The notes below the pieces were generated by a model that was not told the origin of the DNA, searched no databases, and saw nothing but the letters and a program-made list of their open reading frames with translations. A stretch of 64,000 bases of DNA, taken from the NCBI GenBank assembly GCA_003354135.1, contig PIVK01000004.1:31187-95186 (forward strand), read 5' to 3'. This DNA comes from Rhodospirillales bacterium (GTDB lineage Bacteria; Pseudomonadota; Alphaproteobacteria; Rhodospirillales; GLO-3). Positions 32,092 to 50,675 of the stretch are shown here, one piece after another (position 1 is the first letter of the stretch; the number at the start of each line of letters is the position of its first letter). The translations under genes were made by a program, and so were the position numbers.

Positions 32092-33498
32092 GTGACTGAA
32101 GACGTGCTCGAAGTCATTCACGAGGTGGTGGGGGACAAGGGTTGGATCGCCGATCCGGCCGGCATGGCCTCCTACCTCGCCGAGGAACGCGGCCGGTATA
32201 CCGGAACCGCGAACGTCGTGGTGCGCCCGGCCTCGGCCATGGAAGTGGCGGAGGTCGTGCGCCTCTGCGCCCGGACAGGCCTTGAAATCGTGCCTCAGGG
32301 CGGCAACACGGGCTTGGTCGGCGGCAGTGTGGCCCGGGGAGGCATCGTGCTCTCCACCGAACGCCTGACCAAGGTTCGCGAGGTGGATACGCTCAACCAT
32401 ACCATCAACGTCGAGGCGGGTGTGATCCTGGCGGATGTGCAGCGAGCGGCGGAGGATGCAGGGGCTTTCTTCCCGCTTTCACTCGGCGCCGAGGGGAGAT
32501 GTCACATCGGCGGCACCATCGCCACCAATGCCGGCGGCACCAACGTGCTTCACTATGGCAACGTGCGGGACTTGGTGCTGGGCCTGGAAGTGGTTTTGCC
32601 CGACGGGCAGGTGTGGGACGGCATGAGGAGCCTGCGCAAAGACAACACAGGTTACGACCTGAAGCAGCTCTTCATCGGCTCCGAGGGGACTCTGGGCATC
32701 ATCACCGCAGCCCAACTGAAGCTGTTTCCCAGGCCGGTCAGCCGCGAAACCGCCTTCGTCGCCTGCGAAACCGTCAGCGCCGCGTTATCGCTATTCGAAC
32801 GGGTCCGGGAAGACCTGGGAAACACCCTGACCGGCGTCGAGTTGGTGGCACGCCGGGTGCTGGAGTTCGGCACGCGCCATATCCCGGGTGTCGCCGATCC
32901 CTTCAGCGCTCCTCACCCCTGGTACCTCCTGATCGAACTGACCAGCCCACGCCCCGACGACGACCTCAGGGGGGGGCTGGAGAAGTGCCTGGGTCCTGCC
33001 TTTGAGGACGGGACGGCCACGGATGCCGTGCTGGCCGAAAGCATTGCCCAAGGAGACGCGCTCTGGGCGATCCGCGAAGCCATCCCCGAGGCCCAGAAAC
33101 ACGAGGGCGGCAGTATCAAGCATGACGTGGCAGTGCCTGTTTCACGCGTGGCCGAGTTCGTCGAAAAGGCGACGAAAGCGGTGGAAGGTGCCCTCCCTGG
33201 CGTCCGGGTCTGCCCCTTCGGCCACATGGGTGACGGCAATCTCCACTTCAATCTGTCCCAGCCCGAGGGGATGGAAACGAAAGCCTTCCTGGCCCGCTGG
33301 GAGGAGATGAACCGCATCGTCCACGACATCGCCGTCTCCATGAACGGCACTTTCTCGGCCGAGCACGGTATCGGCATGCTAAAGAAGGACGAACTGGCGC
33401 ATTACCGTTCGCAGGTCGAACTCGATCTCATGCGTACCCTTAAGCGGGCGCTCGATCCAAACAACATCATGAACCCGGGTAAGGTCGTCGACTCCTAA
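32092..33498 (+). CDS. FAD-linked oxidase (GlcD / D-2-hydroxyacid dehydrogenase family)
   Basis: Contains the FAD_binding_4 pattern (VVRPASAMEVAEVV, VPQGGNTGLVGGS) and the C-terminal FSAEHGIG. Confidence 0.8.
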   Translation: MTEDVLEVIHEVVGDKGWIADPAGMASYLAEERGRYTGTANVVVRPASAMEVAEVVRLCARTGLEIVPQGGNTGLVGGSVARGGIVLSTERLTKVREVDTLNHTINVEAGVILADVQRAAEDAGAFFPLSLGAEGRCHIGGTIATNAGGTNVLHYGNVRDLVLGLEVVLPDGQVWDGMRSLRKDNTGYDLKQLFIGSEGTLGIITAAQLKLFPRPVSRETAFVACETVSAALSLFERVREDLGNTLTGVELVARRVLEFGTRHIPGVADPFSAPHPWYLLIELTSPRPDDDLRGGLEKCLGPAFEDGTATDAVLAESIAQGDALWAIREAIPEAQKHEGGSIKHDVAVPVSRVAEFVEKATKAVEGALPGVRVCPFGHMGDGNLHFNLSQPEGMETKAFLARWEEMNRIVHDIAVSMNGTFSAEHGIGMLKKDELAHYRSQVELDLMRTLKRALDPNNIMNPGKVVDS

Positions 33499-34073
33499 GG
33501 GCTCGTGACAAAATAACCGCTGCGGATTTCACCGGATTTTTGTTCCGACAAGGGACGCATACTGCCGGTGCCGGTTGCCATTTCCACCAGCATCTTCCGC
33601 CTGCCATACCCCATCTCCTGGCAAAGAGTGTTGATGCATTCTTTCTGATAATCGCGACCAGCGATCTTGGCATCTATCTCAATGGTGAGTGGATCAACCT
33701 TGAGCGTCCGACTTGCGGAACGCCGCTCAAGGTCTTCCTGGGAGAACACGGTTTTGACCTTGTGGGGATGTGCCTCCTTCTCCCATTCCCAGAACCAGAC
33801 CTCCTCACCGTTCGCAAGGAAGATGTAGGGGATGCCAAGTTGCTCAGCGTATCCCTTTGCCTGATCTTCCGCCTCAACGGGATTGATGGAGGCGCGCTTC
33901 GCTTCAACGACCGCCAAACTGTGTCCGTGCCGATTGCAGAGGACGTAATCTGCCTTGGTGTTGTCAGGTAGCAGATATTCGTAACGGACGCTCACGTCGT
34001 CTGTGAGATTCCATCCCACGTCCTTCAACTGGGCATCCATCTTGACGCGAGAAAATGTCTCGTTGGTATTCAT
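33495..34073 (-). pseudogene. Truncated restriction-enzyme R-subunit/helicase (HsdR-type N-terminal nuclease domain, cut at Walker A)
   Basis: A Mrr/HsdR_N-like nuclease core (ADYVL...AVVEAKR) is followed by RDYQ and MATGTG. Unrelated residues and a stop follow where the GKT and the rest of the helicase should be. Confidence 0.6.
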
Positions 34074-34301
34074 CCGCTCTTCATAGAATCTCGGGGATCG
34101 GGGCGCCATCTCAGCGTCCGTCAGATCGTCGCTGAGGAGTGGCAATCTGCTTTTAGGTGGATTGCCACCGGGGAGCACGTCGGCGTGTCTAAGCGGTGAG
34201 GAATGGTGAGGATTCAGTTGGAGGCAAGTTTGAACAAACGATGGATGGTTTCGTCCGGTTGAGGCAGACTGTCATCCACACGGAACTTGAGGTCTTTCAA
34301 A

Positions 34302-35306
34302 ATGGGCGTTTTCACGACGAATCGCAGACTTCCCGAAGTCACTTTCCAGAAGGAGAAGGATTTTGAGGAAGAGGTGTTCGCGAACTCCAAACTCTTGTTC
34401 GGTGAGAAGACCATCCTCTTGGACACCAAGACCCTCCTGAAGGGGAACCTTCTGGGAGGAACCATCCCTGACGGGTTCCTTTTTGACCTATCGGACGAGA
34501 CTGACCCAAAGTTCTATTTGATTGAAGTTGAACTGGCGAAACATAGTTTCAACAGTCATATTTTCCCCCAAATCACCAAGTTTTTTGCGTTCTTCAAGAA
34601 CCAAGAGCAGCGTCAGGACCTTACGGGGAAGTTATTTGAAATCATTAGTTCCGACAAAAAACTTCGGGGTCTGTTCAAGAAGCATCTCGGCGACCAAGAG
34701 ATTTTCAAGTTCATAAACGACGTGGTTGAAAACAGTCAGAACATTCTCATCGTGATTGATGGTGAGAAGGGCGAGATTTCGCAGATGGGCGAGGTCTATA
34801 CCGACACCTGGGGAAAGATGGTGAAACACATCGTTCTTCGGAAATACGAGGATCGTAAGGACACGGTTTATCATTTAGAACCTGATTTTGAGATCCTTGA
34901 GATCGTTGGTGATGAGAAGGTTGCGGCAGAGAGAACGAGTTACGACGAGGAACACCATACGGATGGCGTTTCTGAGAACGTCGTTGCCATTTATAGGGAG
35001 TTGAAACACAGGGTTCTGAGCATCAATCCAGAACTAGTGATAAATCCAACGAAGAGTTATATTTCAATAAAGAACGATAAAAATGTTGCATATATAAAAA
35101 TGAGCAAGAAAAAAATGAACCTTATACCTATGGTTCCAGAGAGTACTATTAGAAAACATGTCAAAAAATATACGGTGAAGTCATTCCCTGCGAGCGTAAA
35201 AAAGTTTTGGAACGGAGATTGTGCGGACATTGTGATTGAGCATGGGGACGGGATGGACGAACTGATCAACGTCCTTACTCCGATCATCCAAGCAGAGGAA
35301 GACTAA
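34302..35306 (+). CDS. Hypothetical protein, possible PD-(D/E)xK-like nuclease N-domain; visibly low GC
   Basis: Contains IPDGFLFD and YLIEVELAKH, which resemble a restriction-endonuclease-fold signature. The sequence is K/E/I/N-rich, unlike the neighbouring genes. Confidence 0.5.
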   Translation: MGVFTTNRRLPEVTFQKEKDFEEEVFANSKLLFGEKTILLDTKTLLKGNLLGGTIPDGFLFDLSDETDPKFYLIEVELAKHSFNSHIFPQITKFFAFFKNQEQRQDLTGKLFEIISSDKKLRGLFKKHLGDQEIFKFINDVVENSQNILIVIDGEKGEISQMGEVYTDTWGKMVKHIVLRKYEDRKDTVYHLEPDFEILEIVGDEKVAAERTSYDEEHHTDGVSENVVAIYRELKHRVLSINPELVINPTKSYISIKNDKNVAYIKMSKKKMNLIPMVPESTIRKHVKKYTVKSFPASVKKFWNGDCADIVIEHGDGMDELINVLTPIIQAEED

Positions 35307-36179: not shown

Positions 36180-38885
36180 CTAGGACACGTACGATACCTT
36201 CGACGCCGGGGTCCGCGTATCCATGTTGCGGCCGCGGTTCATGTGATCGTCGATCTCACCCGCGCAGCCCGTCATACGACCGAACAGGAAGGCGGTGAAG
36301 GCCGCCGTCTCCAGAGACGCCTCAGAGTAGTCGCCCGAGATGTAGCGCGGCCAGAGCAGCTTCAGCAGCAAAGCGGCGATGACCGCATCGATGTTCACGC
36401 AGAACACGTTCTTGGTCACGCCGGCGTCAAACAGCGCCTGAGCCACGTTCTGATAGAAGTCGTGGAAGATGTTGTACTCATTGCGTTTCTTGAACAACTC
36501 GTCAATAAACACCTCGCGCGGGTCCTTGTTGACCACCTTGCCCTTGAAGACCGGATGGTTGACGCCCGGAATGTTGCGCACACTCTCGCCGGCCACCTTG
36601 CGGGCCTTCTTGTCGTCCCCGAACGCGGTGGCATAGGCCTCCGCCATCTGCTTCAAATCGAGGCCGTGTTTGGGATTGGCCGCATCGTCGAGGCCACGGC
36701 CCTTGAAGTTCTCAATCAGGAACTGGATACCCTCGTAACCGTTGCCTCCGTGGGCAAAGCCGGTATGGGTCAGGAAGCCGACCATGGACTTGTTGATCTG
36801 CACCCGCTCCGGACTTTCTGGACCGTCTGCGGCCACACCGCCCTTGGCGCCCTGGGCCGAGATTGTGCCGACACCATTGGAGATCAGCAGCCCCAAAAGA
36901 ACCTGGAAGGGGAAGAGGATCTCCGGCGTCGGCTTCTCGTTGGCCAAAGCCAGGTACGCCAGTTCGGTCATCGTCCACGACTCCATGATCTGTTTCATGG
37001 GGATGCCGTTGAATTTATCCTTTTTGTGCTCCTTGCCGGGCACCGTAACGCCGATCATCAGGGCGTGGCAGCGGATGTACCAAGGCAAATTGTAGACCGT
37101 AAGGCGCGAGACGCGTTTGCGCATCAGCGGGCTCCAGGCGATGGTCGTGGTGATCGCCGCCAGGACCGCGTCCGCGGTGATGTGGCCTTTGATGCCGTGC
37201 AGAAAGTCGGTGAAGACCGAACTCGCCTTGCGCTTCCTGATCGCATCCAGCATGGCCAGGGCCTTGGGATCGGCTGACTCGCCGGTGAGGGCCGCAAGCT
37301 GCTCCTTGGTCGGCTTGATGACCGGCAGCTTGAACTTGGTGTCCGTGCCGTCCATGAGCCCTAAGTGGGCAAAAAGGTCTATCAGGACGTCGGCCGCTTT
37401 GCGCGCACCATCGACCGCTTTGGGGCCGAGAATGCTGGTGGCCGCCGCTAGGACGCTGTTGGGCGCGTTGCCTGCGGCCCGGGCCGCGTCGGCGGCTGCC
37501 AGCGCGGGATCACCCATCATATTGACGTAGGCGGCGATGGCCGTATTCATCAGCGCGTTGTCGTTGGGGCCGTTGTCCTGTTCCAGCAGCACCATGCAGG
37601 CGTTGGACTCCAGCGGCAGACTGGAAAGATCGAGAATCGAACGGCCGAAGATCTTGGTGACCTGGGTCTTGGCATCCATGATCGAGCAGCCCGAGGAATC
37701 CTTCATGGACTGGCGCGGGTAGCTGGTGCCGACCGACTTGCCAATGGCCGCAATCTGGTCGTCATAAGGCGACAGAGCCTTGACGATGGGCAGGTCCAGC
37801 TCCGTGGGCAGCTTGATCCCCTGGTTGTTGCCGAACCACGGCTTGAGTTCAAGGTTGCCCTCGGGCGGAAAGTCGGGTTCGACTCCATTCAGGGCCATGA
37901 CCTCGGTCAGAGCCGCCGGGATGTGAGAGATGTTGATCACCACCGCGCCTTGGGCCGACACCACCGGGTTGTCGGGAGTGAATATCTCATCCACCCCGAA
38001 CTGGTCCATGCACCACTTCTCCTTGGCCGCAGCGTCGTCGCCCGAACCGGCGATGGCGCCCGCGTGACCCACGGCGCGGGTCAGCTTGGCCTTCCATCGA
38101 CCGACCACGCAGGCGACCGTCGGCTTGGTCAGATTCAAGTCCTGTTCGTAGTACCCGCCGGGTTCGACGTACATCACCGCGCCCTTGGACCGGGCGTCGT
38201 TGGCCAGGCCGTGGGCCCATTCGGCGGGCGCATAGTGGATGTAGACGTCTTTACCGCTGGAGACCAGCGTCGTCGTGCCCCAGCCGGAAAGACCGAGGTA
38301 GTTGGCGATGGTGGTGGTGAAGTTGCCCGAGTTGGAGTAGATCGCAATGCAGCCCTTGCGCAGCGTCTCCTCGGGCTTGTCGCCACCCAGCGCGCCACCG
38401 AAGCGCACATGGTTCCAGGAGTCGGCGATGCCGAGGCAGTTGGCGCCGAAGACGTCGACGTTGCCCTGCTGACCCAGCGCCCGGATTTCGCGCGCATCGT
38501 GCACCGAAACTTTCTCGGTGAGGATTATGACCTTCTCCAGATCCGAATTGACGCGGATCAGCTCGGCCACGCCGTCGCGGACGCCGGCCGGCGGCAGATA
38601 GACGACACCGACGTTGAACCGGTGCCCGGCCTCCATGCCCTCACGCACGTTGTTGTAGACCGGGATGTCACCAACTGCGGTCTCCAGGACCTGGCCGGCG
38701 CGGCCCGGCGAGGTGCCGAAGAGTACGTTGCCACCAGAATAGGCGTGGCTGATCGGAGTCACGGTGCGTGACTCGCCCCCCAGGATGTTGAGGACGCAGA
38801 TGCGGTCCTTGCGGGTCGCGAGTTGCGCCAGCGAATCGACGCCGACGAAGTAGTTGGGGAATGCCTGAATACCCTGCTTTTTCAT
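36180..38885 (-). CDS. aclA: ATP-citrate lyase alpha-like large subunit (succinyl-CoA-synthetase-alpha-like domain fused to a citrate-synthase/citryl-CoA-lyase-like domain), 901 aa
   Basis: Contains the phosphohistidine loop RAVGHAGAIAG, a CoA-ligase alpha-like N-half, and a C-terminal GVNHPVFKGKVVNKDPR (citrate-synthase GHxVxK..DPR-type motif). ATG 38885 is preceded by AGGGAG. Confidence 0.75.
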   Translation of the reverse strand: MKKQGIQAFPNYFVGVDSLAQLATRKDRICVLNILGGESRTVTPISHAYSGGNVLFGTSPGRAGQVLETAVGDIPVYNNVREGMEAGHRFNVGVVYLPPAGVRDGVAELIRVNSDLEKVIILTEKVSVHDAREIRALGQQGNVDVFGANCLGIADSWNHVRFGGALGGDKPEETLRKGCIAIYSNSGNFTTTIANYLGLSGWGTTTLVSSGKDVYIHYAPAEWAHGLANDARSKGAVMYVEPGGYYEQDLNLTKPTVACVVGRWKAKLTRAVGHAGAIAGSGDDAAAKEKWCMDQFGVDEIFTPDNPVVSAQGAVVINISHIPAALTEVMALNGVEPDFPPEGNLELKPWFGNNQGIKLPTELDLPIVKALSPYDDQIAAIGKSVGTSYPRQSMKDSSGCSIMDAKTQVTKIFGRSILDLSSLPLESNACMVLLEQDNGPNDNALMNTAIAAYVNMMGDPALAAADAARAAGNAPNSVLAAATSILGPKAVDGARKAADVLIDLFAHLGLMDGTDTKFKLPVIKPTKEQLAALTGESADPKALAMLDAIRKRKASSVFTDFLHGIKGHITADAVLAAITTTIAWSPLMRKRVSRLTVYNLPWYIRCHALMIGVTVPGKEHKKDKFNGIPMKQIMESWTMTELAYLALANEKPTPEILFPFQVLLGLLISNGVGTISAQGAKGGVAADGPESPERVQINKSMVGFLTHTGFAHGGNGYEGIQFLIENFKGRGLDDAANPKHGLDLKQMAEAYATAFGDDKKARKVAGESVRNIPGVNHPVFKGKVVNKDPREVFIDELFKKRNEYNIFHDFYQNVAQALFDAGVTKNVFCVNIDAVIAALLLKLLWPRYISGDYSEASLETAAFTAFLFGRMTGCAGEIDDHMNRGRNMDTRTPASKVSYVS

Positions 38886-38913
38886 CTCTGATATCTCCCT
38901 GTCCGCCGGTCGC

Positions 38914-40224
38914 TTACTTCTTGGCCTTGCGGGGCTTGACCCGCGCATCGTCCGCCGGAATGCCGAGCAGCTTGCCGACTTCCACGCGTCCGCCGTTCTC
39001 CATCCACTCGTCGGCCTTCTGGGCGTAGTGGACCACGTCCGTCATCGCCGAGTCGAAGCCGAAGATGCGATAGGGAAGACGGAGCGCATCCAGGGTGTCC
39101 TTGAAATAACCCATACCGCGGATCACCTGCGGTCCACCGCGACCGATAACGACATAAAGCGGGGCCGGGCCGTGTTCCGAAAAGTGTTCTCGAAGTGAAT
39201 CCGCAATGGCGCGGAAGGTAATGTAGATGTCCGTGTTGTTGGCCTTGCCGCCGATCAGGAACAGCACGTTGGACTGGGCCAGCCAGTACTTGAGGCAGAT
39301 CCGCGACACCTCGCGCATCTTGGCATACGGCGGGTTGCCGCCGAAGTCCGACGAGATGATGGCGTCGTCGCCCAGGCCTTCAGAGACCAAAGAGTTGGCG
39401 CCGCCGCCGAAGGTCGGGGCGAGGATGGTGCCCTTCTCGTTGATGACGTAGACGTCGCTCTGACCCTGGTAGGTCCGGAGTTGGTTGATCTCCTGTTCGA
39501 AGTCCGAGTGGTCGGCGGCGAACAGATCGTCCGGCAGGTTGGCACGTGCGACGCGTGGATCGTCTCGGTCAAAGCCGCACTTGAAGTCACAAGCGACCGG
39601 CGAAAGATAACCGGGCCGGCTCACCGTCATACGGATCGGGTTCAGCTCCAGCGTCGTCATGCCATAAAGGTGGAACAGGTCCCACAGCTTGGGCAGCTGC
39701 TGCACCAACGGCGAGACAATCTCCTTCGGGGCGCCCAAGTCGGACAGCGCGTTGGCGATGACGAAGGACTTGAGACCGGTCAGGGGATCGAAGGGGATCT
39801 CGACGATCTTACCCTTCGGCAGTTCCTCGATGTCCGTGCCGCCGTGATGGGTCAGCGTGATGGCCGGTGCCCGGTAGCGCGTCGAGTCCGAGATCGAGAA
39901 GTAGACCTCGTAGTCGGCCGGCACGCCGCCTTCGAAAGTGACACCGTTGGCTTTGGCTGTGGCGTTGCCATGCTTGTGCTCGACGAAATAGAGTCGCTCT
40001 TTTTCCGCCAGCGCGGTCCGCATGTCCTTGGCGCGGCCAAGCAAACCTGCCTTGCCTTTCTTGCCGACGCCGCCTTTGAAGATAGGCTTGACGAAAACCT
40101 CGCCGCAGCGCTCGATCAGTTCCTTAATCTCGGCGTCACTCGCCTCGGACCCCAACACTTCTGCAGAGGGGAACCCCACCTGCTTCAAAAGCTTGGAACC
40201 ATAGAGCATTCCGGTTACTTGCAT
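38914..40224 (-). CDS. aclB: ATP-citrate lyase beta-like subunit (ATP-grasp, succinyl-CoA-synthetase-beta-like)
   Basis: 436 aa with an ATP-grasp-like N-half (VFVKPIFKGGVGKKGKAGL). ATG 40224 is preceded by AAGGGGGAG. It lies immediately upstream of the alpha-like subunit. Confidence 0.7.
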   Translation of the reverse strand: MQVTGMLYGSKLLKQVGFPSAEVLGSEASDAEIKELIERCGEVFVKPIFKGGVGKKGKAGLLGRAKDMRTALAEKERLYFVEHKHGNATAKANGVTFEGGVPADYEVYFSISDSTRYRAPAITLTHHGGTDIEELPKGKIVEIPFDPLTGLKSFVIANALSDLGAPKEIVSPLVQQLPKLWDLFHLYGMTTLELNPIRMTVSRPGYLSPVACDFKCGFDRDDPRVARANLPDDLFAADHSDFEQEINQLRTYQGQSDVYVINEKGTILAPTFGGGANSLVSEGLGDDAIISSDFGGNPPYAKMREVSRICLKYWLAQSNVLFLIGGKANNTDIYITFRAIADSLREHFSEHGPAPLYVVIGRGGPQVIRGMGYFKDTLDALRLPYRIFGFDSAMTDVVHYAQKADEWMENGGRVEVGKLLGIPADDARVKPRKAKK

Positions 40225-48770: not shown

Positions 48771-49652
48771 TCAGAGCAGACCTTTGTCTGCCAAGACGGG
48801 TTTCGGGTCGATGTGGTGGAGATCCAAGCGCAGGTCCTCCTCGTCCGAGCAGCCAAGCGCCAAGGCCATCAACTGCGTGAAATAGACAACGGGCATGTTC
48901 TTGAAATCCGGGAAAAGTTCCCGGGTCTGCTCCTGACGGTTATCCAAATTGAAGGCGCACAGCGGGCAACTGACGGCAACGATGTCGGCTCCCTGGGAGC
49001 TGGCGTTACCAACGATCTTGTTAGTCTGTTCGGCCACGATCCCGGGCTTGTCGACCGTTTGATAGGACGCGCAGCACTCGGTCTTCATCGCGAAATCGAC
49101 CGGGGTTCCGCCCAGGGCCGTCACCAGGTCTTCCATGATGGTCGGATTTTCGGTGTCGTCGATGGCCGCTTCCTGCGGACGTACCAGCATGCAGCCGTAG
49201 TAGCAGGCGACTTTGAGTCCTTCGAGGGGCTTCTCGACCCTTGCTGCGATGTCCTTGAACCCGAACTCGTCACGCAGGAACTCAAGCAAGTGAAAAACGT
49301 TGACGTCGCCCTCGTAATCCACGTCCTCAAGGTACATGAAGTCGTTGAGCCGATCCTTCGCCTCGTTGTCCCGCTTCACATGCTCGTTGGCCCTTTTGAG
49401 GGTGTTGTAGCACATGGAGCAGACCGTCATGAGTTGGTCGGTGCCCGCTTCCTTGGCCCGGATCAAATTGCGGACCGGAGCCATGCGATTCATCAGGTTG
49501 TCGGAGGTGAGCGAGTGGACGGTGCCGCAGCAGTTCCACCGCGTAAGCTCCTCGACCTCGACGCCCAAGCGCTCCATGGCCGAAAACGTCGAGTCATCGA
49601 AGTTTTTGGCATGGTTCTTAAGCGTACAACCGGGATAGTAGCTAAGCTTCAT
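48771..49652 (-). CDS. HdrB-like protein with two CCG (Cys-rich) domains (also the SdhE / TfrB C-terminal type)
   Basis: Contains YYPGCTLKN...NCCGTV and YYGCMLVRP...ECCASY. I placed the start at ATG 49652, inside the longer ORF. Confidence 0.75.
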   Translation of the reverse strand: MKLSYYPGCTLKNHAKNFDDSTFSAMERLGVEVEELTRWNCCGTVHSLTSDNLMNRMAPVRNLIRAKEAGTDQLMTVCSMCYNTLKRANEHVKRDNEAKDRLNDFMYLEDVDYEGDVNVFHLLEFLRDEFGFKDIAARVEKPLEGLKVACYYGCMLVRPQEAAIDDTENPTIMEDLVTALGGTPVDFAMKTECCASYQTVDKPGIVAEQTNKIVGNASSQGADIVAVSCPLCAFNLDNRQEQTRELFPDFKNMPVVYFTQLMALALGCSDEEDLRLDLHHIDPKPVLADKGLL

Positions 49653-49678
49653 CACTACTTCTTCTTCTACCGTGTAAT

Positions 49679-49937
49679 ACCAAGGTGCGGTGATAATGAC
49701 CCATAGAGACGGCTTCCCCTGATTTTTGGCTAGGAGCGCGCATCGAAGCGATGTGAGGCATCGGGAGATGCGTGCGACGCGATCCAAAAGTCAGGGGAAA
49801 CCGCCGTTCCGGTCGCTTATACAGCCCGTCGGAGGGCGTCGGGAAGCCTTGACGATGCGCCGCATCGCCTGCGTCTTTCCTCCTACCCGACGGGCTGTAT
49901 AAGTGATCTCTATGGGTCATTATCACCGCACCTTGGT
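49679..49937. repeat. 259-bp nested-palindrome element with perfect 31-bp terminal inverted repeats (MITE-like element or structured intercistronic RNA)
   Basis: 49679-49709 is the exact reverse complement of 49907-49937. The inner stems are 49710-49729 with 49784-49803 (20 bp, 1 mismatch and 1 G-T) and 49816-49832 with 49887-49903 (17 bp, perfect). Confidence 0.9.
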
Positions 49938-50270
49938 TAACCTACATCCTTCAGCGGGAGGAGACGGCAGGGTTAAAATGAGACAGCGGCGCCCGATCAA
50001 TGCTCTTCGGCAGTGTGCAACGAATAAATTACTCCGTTACATCGCCGAGATAATTACGGACAGTTGTTCTTGAATTAGTATTCAAAAACGAACTTGATGC
50101 CCTAGCCCCAGTCTCCCATACCTTCTTTTTCTACAACCACTTTCCTCCCTTGAAAAGCAGCCGACTTAGTCTCTTTTACATTGGCTTCCCTTTTACGGGA
50201 GGCCGGTTGTATTATTGAGGACGTCCGACGAGACGAACAACCCCGGGTATAACTGTCTCACGGTCGCGCA

Positions 50271-50675
50271 TCAGGAGGTAAACTTCCTCATGGCGCTGAT
50301 CAACGCGATCGGCGGCAGGTTCTCGCCCGGGTTGGGCAGTTCCTGAACCACCAAGTGATCCTTTCTCTGGCGCAAGTTGATCTGACGCAAGGCCTCGATG
50401 GTGCCGGCGATGTTGACGCCCTTAGGGCACCGACTGTCGCAAGTGAGGCACGAGACGCAAAGCCAGATGGCCTTGGAATTCAGCAGCTGATCCTGCATGC
50501 CGAGCTGAGAAAGGCGGATAATCTGGTTGGGCAAGATGTCCATATGGGGCCCCATCGGACACCCGGCGGAACAGTTGCCGCACTGGTAACAGGCCAGAAG
50601 ATTCTGGTCGGCCAGTTTCTCGACCTTCGAGACAAACTCCGTCGAGGCCTTCGTGGGGGAGATGCTTACATGCAC
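50271..50675 (-). CDS. HdrC-like 4Fe-4S dicluster protein
   Basis: Contains CYQCGNCSAGCP and CVSCLTCDSRCP. GTG 50675 has GAGGGAAGGA 8 nt upstream. The longer ORF to 50912 would overlap the upstream gene. Confidence 0.7.
   Translation of the reverse strand: MHVSISPTKASTEFVSKVEKLADQNLLACYQCGNCSAGCPMGPHMDILPNQIIRLSQLGMQDQLLNSKAIWLCVSCLTCDSRCPKGVNIAGTIEALRQINLRQRKDHLVVQELPNPGENLPPIALISAMRKFTS

Follow-up and report, generated by a model that had tools for sequence, protein, structure and literature searches.

What is the long palindrome that lies inside an otherwise compact carbon-fixation gene cluster, and why is it there? In the window, by which we mean the whole 64-kb stretch of DNA analysed here, a fumarate-reductase / 2-oxoacid:ferredoxin-oxidoreductase (rTCA) cluster contains a 618-nt spacer between its hdrC-like and hdrB-like genes, and this spacer holds a nested palindrome of 259 bp. 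An earlier, sequence-only reading had offered two answers: a MITE-like insertion, which it considered weakened by the apparent lack of a clean target-site duplication, and a structured intercistronic RNA that sets differential stability, processing or translation on either side. Here, we present evidence for the first. The element is very probably (probability of about 0.88) a MITE of an undescribed family, that is, mobile DNA that inserted at a TAA shortly before the hdrB-like gene.

All genes of the cluster, placed by Pfam domains and by a tblastn map against the proteins of a relative, lie on the minus strand (Table 1). The map gives about 10-95 nt for the other junctions, and the 618-nt gap is indeed the only long one. 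The element ends 25 nt before the hdrB-like ATG, and the duplicated target lies 22 nt before it. The genes downstream of the element align to their homologues over their full length by tblastn (the hdrB-like product has a full-length 71% match to the HdrB of locus L002), and the insertion was therefore tolerated rather than disruptive.

Table 1. Positions of the features discussed, in window numbering, followed by the other copies of the element with their sources.
Feature	Position or source	Strand	Description or basis
FrdB-like gene	53734-53072	-	Pfam and tblastn map
FrdA-like gene	52976-51261	-	Pfam and tblastn map
Rubrerythrin-like gene	51228-50692	-	Pfam and tblastn map
hdrC-like 4Fe-4S gene	50271-50675, start approximate	-	Pfam Fer4_8/17; tblastn 50669-50274; stop at 50271
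AT-richer remainder of the spacer, outside the MITE	49941-50270 (333 nt if counted from 49938)	-	
Upstream half of the reconstructed empty site, GAAGGATGTAGGT	49941-49953	-	Alignment with L001
Target-site duplication, distal copy	49938-49940		TAA; from alignment with other copies
Right terminal inverted repeat, 31 nt	49907-49937		Terminal A of other copies missing
Inner hairpin module 2, 94 nt	49813-49906		20-bp basal stem, apex CGATG-N5-CATCG
Linker between the hairpin modules, 9 nt, CCGTTCCGG	49804-49812		Invariant in four full copies
Inner hairpin module 1, 94 nt	49710-49803		20-bp basal stem, internal loops, apex CGATG-N5-CATCG
Left terminal inverted repeat, T + 31-nt ACCAAGGTGCGGTGATAATGACCCATAGAGA	49678-49709		Exact reverse complement of 49907-49937; conserved in L006, L009, L012 and L007
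Target-site duplication, hdrB-proximal copy	49675-49677	+	TAA; identical to 49938-49940
Leader from duplication to hdrB-like ATG, 22 nt, CACGGTAGAAGAAGAAGTAGTG	49653-49674	-	Purine run 5 nt before the ATG
hdrB-like gene, two CCG domains, intact	48771-49652	-	Pfam CCG, E 3e-20; ATG at 49652
Genes beyond the hdrB-like gene, in order		-	4Fe-4S ferredoxin, KorA/B/G, HdrA-like, FlpD-like, then further on ACL-like genes
Copy L006	Rhodospirillales MAG Arabian11_MAG_19		Full copy, 259 bp between identical termini
Copy L009	Arabian11_MAG_19, another contig		Full, about 275 bp, 15-nt insertion in hairpin 1
Copy L012	Metagenome contig PVBE011104072, 374-680		Full copy, about 275 bp
Copy L007	Gammaproteobacteria MAG Glo_5		Truncated: terminus and hairpin 1 only

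The anatomy first described for the palindrome was recovered in full. Its termini, 49679-49709 and 49907-49937, are exact reverse complements (31/31; two matches, vs 0 in 100 dinucleotide shuffles), and an inverted-repeat search returned both of the further inner stems, each 20 nt long: 49710-49729 with 49784-49803 at 90%, and 49813-49832 with 49887-49906 at 95%, the latter including the perfect 17 bp reported earlier. As a whole, the element is a weak palindrome (58-nt arms, 78%). Hairpin 1 is weakly similar to the reverse complement of hairpin 2, making the element two-fold symmetric, with each end built as ‘terminus plus hairpin’. Its interior is GC-rich, and it is non-coding, with only mechanical ORFs across it in the ORF listing. 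The true ends, T-ACCAAGG...CCTTGGT-A, were set by the other copies and are one base longer on each side than had been thought. Counted in this way, the element measures ~260 bp, and its terminal inverted repeats are 32 bp in other copies, where the terminal T/A is present, and 31 bp (perfect) in the window, where the right end lacks the terminal A.

These other copies, whose existence elsewhere the sequence-only reading had proposed to look for, were found by exact matching of the outermost 20 nt of the terminus, which gave five loci among one genome per species and three among metagenomes. Four of the eight are real copies (L006, L009, L012 and L007; Table 1). The other four (L008, L010, L011 and L013) are chance matches inside a Clostridia coding sequence, and the single hit of a viral-contig scan (L014) was likewise rejected as chance. 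With the window, the family thus numbers five loci from four assemblies, of which Arabian11_MAG_19 contributes two, a total that bears on the collections scanned, among which the source genome was not included. Once all are brought into one orientation (L009 and L012 lie the opposite way round), the full copies align with that of the window at 77-81% identity. The truncated copy L007 is 97% identical to the window over 130 nt and retains exactly one ‘terminus plus hairpin’ half. The copies occupy intergenic sites and adjoin housekeeping genes unrelated to the cluster in the window: genes for an AMP-binding enzyme and a glycosyltransferase, for a TPP enzyme and a GNVR tyrosine kinase, for an M32 carboxypeptidase and threonine synthase (thrC; L012), and for an alpha/beta hydrolase (L007). 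Because an inverted chimeric join in a metagenome-assembled genome might also leave a perfect 31-bp inverted repeat, we considered an assembly artefact; the same architecture recurs in four independent assemblies with diverged sequence and different flanks, and this explanation is scarcely credible.

Two of the flanking regions merit a remark of their own. At L007, the alpha/beta-hydrolase ORF (1589->543) runs at 543-567 on the minus strand through the TTA target into the MITE terminus and ends at the TGA of GGTGATAA, such that its last five codons and its stop come from the element. At L012, the copy separates the M32 carboxypeptidase gene from thrC. The GTG of thrC follows the duplication at a distance of 27 nt, and the copy has the same orientation relative to this downstream gene as the window copy has relative to the hdrB-like gene (22 nt to the ATG).

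The flanks of the copies settle the matter of the target-site duplication. Each full copy is bordered by a 3-bp repeat (TAA/TAA at L006 and at L009, TTA/TTA at L012), and L007 has TTA at its one preserved end. The repeats are direct rather than inverted and differ between copies, which identifies them as a TWA duplication; a TA duplication of the IS630 type does not fit the flanks and was rejected. In the window, TAA occurs at 49675-49677 and again at 49938-49940. The duplication that had been declared absent is therefore present, with a 1-nt defect: the right-hand TAA follows an end that is one base short and is not perfectly adjacent to the element, and it was the missing terminal A that had hidden it.

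If the element is an insertion, relatives of the cluster should offer an empty site. Neither the HdrB-like nor the HdrC-like protein of the window has an exact match on record. Among relatives of the HdrB-like protein, one is 85% identical (L001, on a 1.6-kb contig), and many others are at most 71% identical. The hdrC-hdrB spacer measures 73 nt in L001 and 17 nt in L002-L005 (71% HdrB identity), and the element is absent from this junction in all five. With the element and one TAA taken out, the window reads GAAGGATGTAGGTTACA, and L001 has GATGGATGTAGGTCACA directly before the hdrB ATG; the two agree at 15 of 17 positions across the junction, a score reached by three of 500 shuffles. The L001 junction motif GGATGTAGGTCACA matches the window once the element and one TAA are removed, and GGATGTAGGTTACACGG would be the direct join at the window site without the element. 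On this alignment, the L001 junction is the empty site, in a relative that is not close (85% in HdrB). The sequence-only reading had stated that absence from otherwise identical clusters in close relatives, together with presence at many unrelated loci, would mark plain mobile DNA; absence and unrelated loci are both borne out, with the nearest relative at the 85% just given and with five loci rather than many. Between the empty-site motif and the hdrB ATG, the window also has 19 extra nt, GGTAGAAGAAGAAGTAGTG (49653-49671, minus strand), that include a (GAA)3 run and are not in L001. Judging from the sequence, this stretch may be the working ribosome-binding region, the older GTAGGT motif now being 260 nt further away.

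The element is identified as a MITE by its terminal inverted repeats, by a 3-bp TWA duplication that varies between copies, by its occurrence at unrelated loci and by the empty site of a relative, and its small size and lack of transposase coding agree with this assignment. The copies that define its ends and show its duplication have removed the one weakness that had been held against an insertion. What moved the element would, by analogy, be a DDE transposase acting in trans that duplicates a 3-bp TWA target. The duplication fits the IS427/IS1031-type transposases of the IS5 family: IS1237, a member of this group, duplicates TTA/TAA (PMC2516522), and eukaryotic PIF/Harbinger elements produce a 3-bp target-site duplication (PMC2213677). 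The group and the related PIF/Harbinger-Tourist MITEs share the 3-bp TTA/TAA (TWA) target with our element. The IS1237 termini, GAGGTGGTTTCAGTAGTCG, are unrelated to those of the MITE, TACCAAGGTGCGG, and no transposase gene bounded by the MITE’s termini was found. An IS5-family insertion sequence beside the frd cluster of L002 was considered as a partner and rejected, its ends also being unrelated; these two, IS1237 and the L002 insertion sequence, are the IS5-family termini compared. That insertion sequence (DUF4096 + DDE_Tnp_1; L002 1263-2020) lies directly upstream of the frd cluster and is intact in L002, with split ORFs in L003-L005.

Further searches brought to light neither a partner nor additional copies. 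The 64-kb window, the collected loci, plasmids and phages yielded no autonomous element bearing these termini, and no transposase was found among the genes flanking the other copies. The exact 20-mer scans of the genome and metagenome collections, to which diverged termini are not visible, returned only short elements. An nhmmer profile of the family found no further copy, intact or decayed, in the 64-kb window or the collected loci; a fuzzy search allowing up to five mismatches in the 20 nt gave nothing new; blastn of the element or of the terminus alone against plasmids and phages gave no match; and the terminus sequence had no match in the literature searched. The want of a DDE partner, together with the long internal hairpins and the strong single-stranded DNA fold described below, could instead suggest a palindromic element of the REP/REPIN or IS200/IS605 type, moved by a Y1 enzyme (RAYT/TnpA) through single-stranded hairpins. 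To our knowledge, such elements have neither long terminal inverted repeats nor target-site duplications, whereas every full copy here has 32-bp terminal inverted repeats and a 3-bp duplication, and we consider this origin very improbable.

Having assigned the element to the MITEs, we turn to its structure. On both strands, the fold of minimum energy takes the form of a three-way junction, as had been anticipated: RNA of the minus (transcribed) strand reaches -163.2 kcal/mol (z -13.5), RNA of the plus strand -175.5 kcal/mol (z -14.8) and single-stranded DNA -98.7 kcal/mol (z -14.1). RNAalifold applied to the five copies yields the same three-way junction, with 108 pairs and 97% of cells paired in the family alignment. 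Sixteen pairs have changed on both sides with pairing kept, vs one to three when the partners are slid by one to three columns, and no shuffle reached the observed covariation score. The compensatory changes sit in both inner hairpins (eight pairs in module 1, helix 2, the module that is 97% identical to the truncated L007 copy; seven in module 2, helices 4 and 5), and the termini barely vary. They also split the family into two subfamilies about 20% diverged from each other, one formed by the window and L007 and the other by L006, L009 and L012.

Since this fold is common to copies at unrelated loci, the structure belongs to the transposon and not to the operon in the window. That a structured RNA, as a leader or processing element, evolved in place between the two cistrons is accordingly a most doubtful account of its origin. 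The very stable fold on the transcribed strand and the location right before a start codon whose Shine-Dalgarno sequence is weak would suit such an RNA; the same sequence with its target-site duplication at unrelated loci in other organisms, its absence from the homologous junction of L001-L005 and the equal or better folding of the non-transcribed strand speak against it. Nor does Rfam lend it support: at permissive thresholds, 49400-50500 has only a chance miRNA hit (E 0.5). For annotation, this means that the long gap in the carbon-fixation cluster is mostly accounted for by mobile DNA and is not to be read as regulatory RNA.

Why, then, do the copies keep their pairing? Template-switch correction of quasi-palindromes during replication is a known neutral mechanism that can maintain it. 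This mechanism and selection on the folded strand, for transposition or for RNA-level behaviour, are the two explanations that remain. Four G.T wobbles on the + strand of the window are conserved in all copies (columns 55/137, 159/254, 183/228 and 196/218 of alignment A2), and no A.C mismatch is conserved across them. This hints that the preferred folding strand is the window’s + strand, which is antisense to the operon here, in numbers that are too small to carry the point. Polymorphic wobbles and mismatches split 7:7, which is not significant, and a strand preference is therefore not established.

The element could nonetheless have an incidental RNA-level effect on the operon into which it inserted, and known systems suggest what that effect may be. 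Correia elements generate a TA duplication, carry an IHF site and occur in more than 100 copies per genome. Like the element described here, these Neisseria elements (CREE/NEMIS) are non-coding MITEs with long terminal inverted repeats that lie beside or inside transcription units and form a long hairpin when transcribed. They are smaller (104-157 bp; PMC3184786), and the window element differs from them by its 260 bp, its TWA duplication, its two extra internal hairpin modules and the few copies known; there is no sequence similarity between the two. RNase III cuts Correia transcripts at the terminal inverted repeats, and some subtypes carry promoters (PMC10969869), as MITEs can in general (PMC10969869), whereas no sigma70-like promoter was detected by a promoter scan at the window element or in the spacer. 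Correia elements are the best model for what the window copy may do to the operon mRNA. [quoted passage not shown] ERIC/IRU elements of Enterobacteriaceae are imperfect palindromes co-transcribed with their neighbours, as is known for ERIC and presumed for the window element, and they alter mRNA decay in a context-dependent manner (PMC10969869). They differ in length (about 127 bp), in acting through RNase E, in sequence and in host group.

The element inserted into a TTA (TAA on the + strand) of the hdrC-hdrB spacer, inside a cluster that forms a tight operon in relatives. By analogy with the systems above, the following course of events can be proposed. The element would be co-transcribed with the operon; in the transcript, a 31-bp perfect duplex topped by two long hairpins would form the predicted three-way junction (-163 kcal/mol). 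The perfect stem of the predicted transcript is a plausible RNase III substrate, and cleavage would part the transcript into a frd/rbr/hdrC half and a hdrB/kor/hdrA half. Translation of hdrB would then rely on the purine-rich leader downstream of the element, in which GAAGAAGAAG is a possible Shine-Dalgarno sequence at 5 nt from the ATG. To judge from the elements compared, the operon transcript would probably be cleaved and the stability of one half uncoupled from that of the other. We claim no outward promoter at the junction TGGTATTAC, which resembles a poor extended -10 in which the conserved final T is missing. A terminator scan of both strands had no hit at the element: in the transcript, AUUACACGG comes after the stem and contains no U run, and the stem is therefore not an intrinsic terminator. 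The scan’s single hit lies in the spacer on the + (non-coding) strand at 50180-50207, and shuffles give the same number.

Such effects raise the question of whether the MITE, mobile in origin, has been domesticated, its hairpins now acting as an RNA processing or insulator module that uncouples hdrB/kor/hdrA from the stability or translation of frd/hdrC. The compensatory changes that preserve both inner hairpins across subfamilies about 20% diverged would agree with this, as would the placement of two of the four full copies (the window copy and L012, before thrC), which lie between genes of the same direction, 22-27 nt ahead of the downstream start codon and in the same orientation to the downstream gene, and precedents exist in Correia and ERIC elements (PMC10969869). 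However, a structure kept at unrelated loci need not reflect a host function, as transposition or template-switch correction could do the same; the pattern of position and orientation has n=2; and TWA targets are expected in the AT-richer leaders of a GC-rich genome. Domestication thus seems unlikely to us. Its fullest form seems unlikely as well: that selection maintains the two ~94-nt hairpin modules because their folded strand has a function of use to the host, that the element is a portable RNA processing/insulator module repeatedly placed 22-27 nt upstream of start codons, and that here it sets how strongly the fumarate-reductase part is expressed relative to the HdrB/2-oxoacid-oxidoreductase part in an rTCA operon that now depends on it.

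As a MITE, the element adds a new family to those known, found in marine, Rhodospirillales-like bacteria and distinguished by its TWA target, by the unusual length of its perfect termini and by a two-fold symmetric ‘TIR plus hairpin’ plan in which compensatory change preserves the stems. It also provides a test case for two questions: whether such structure serves transposition or RNA-level effects, and how a hairpin of -160 kcal/mol is tolerated 25 nt before a start codon in an essential operon.

The insertion does not account for the remaining ~333 nt of the long gap. Without the element and one TAA, the spacer would still be about 355 nt long, vs 73 and 17 nt in the relatives. The remainder has a GC content of 0.435-0.515, vs 0.55-0.66 in genes, in agreement with the AT-richer stretch of ~330 nt noticed earlier. 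Positions 49938-50270 show no similarity to the collected loci or to plasmids, and no Rfam hit, promoter-like site, terminal inverted repeat or duplication signature was found in them; their fold is only modestly better than that of shuffles (z -3.2).

Several minor observations concern the wider window. It also carries an lptF-lptG-lptD-surA-pdxA-ksgA block, which fits a proteobacterium, and the best named relatives of its PdxA are from Magnetospirillum, Magnetovibrio, Phaeospirillum, Azospirillum and a ‘Rhodospirillales bacterium’ (62-66% identity); the host of the window is therefore a deep Rhodospirillales-like alphaproteobacterium, in keeping with a Rhodospirillales MAG that carries members of the element family. 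A 922-aa ORF that follows the ACL beta-like gene (36180-38948, minus strand) gives only weak hits to CoA_binding and Succ_CoA_lig (E ~1e-5) and resembles a divergent ACL alpha-like subunit. A 227-aa ORF (33495-34178, minus strand) that covers no more than the N-terminal part of a type I restriction HsdR subunit is probably a truncated gene, and it adjoins the gene of a DUF5655 protein (34287-35306).
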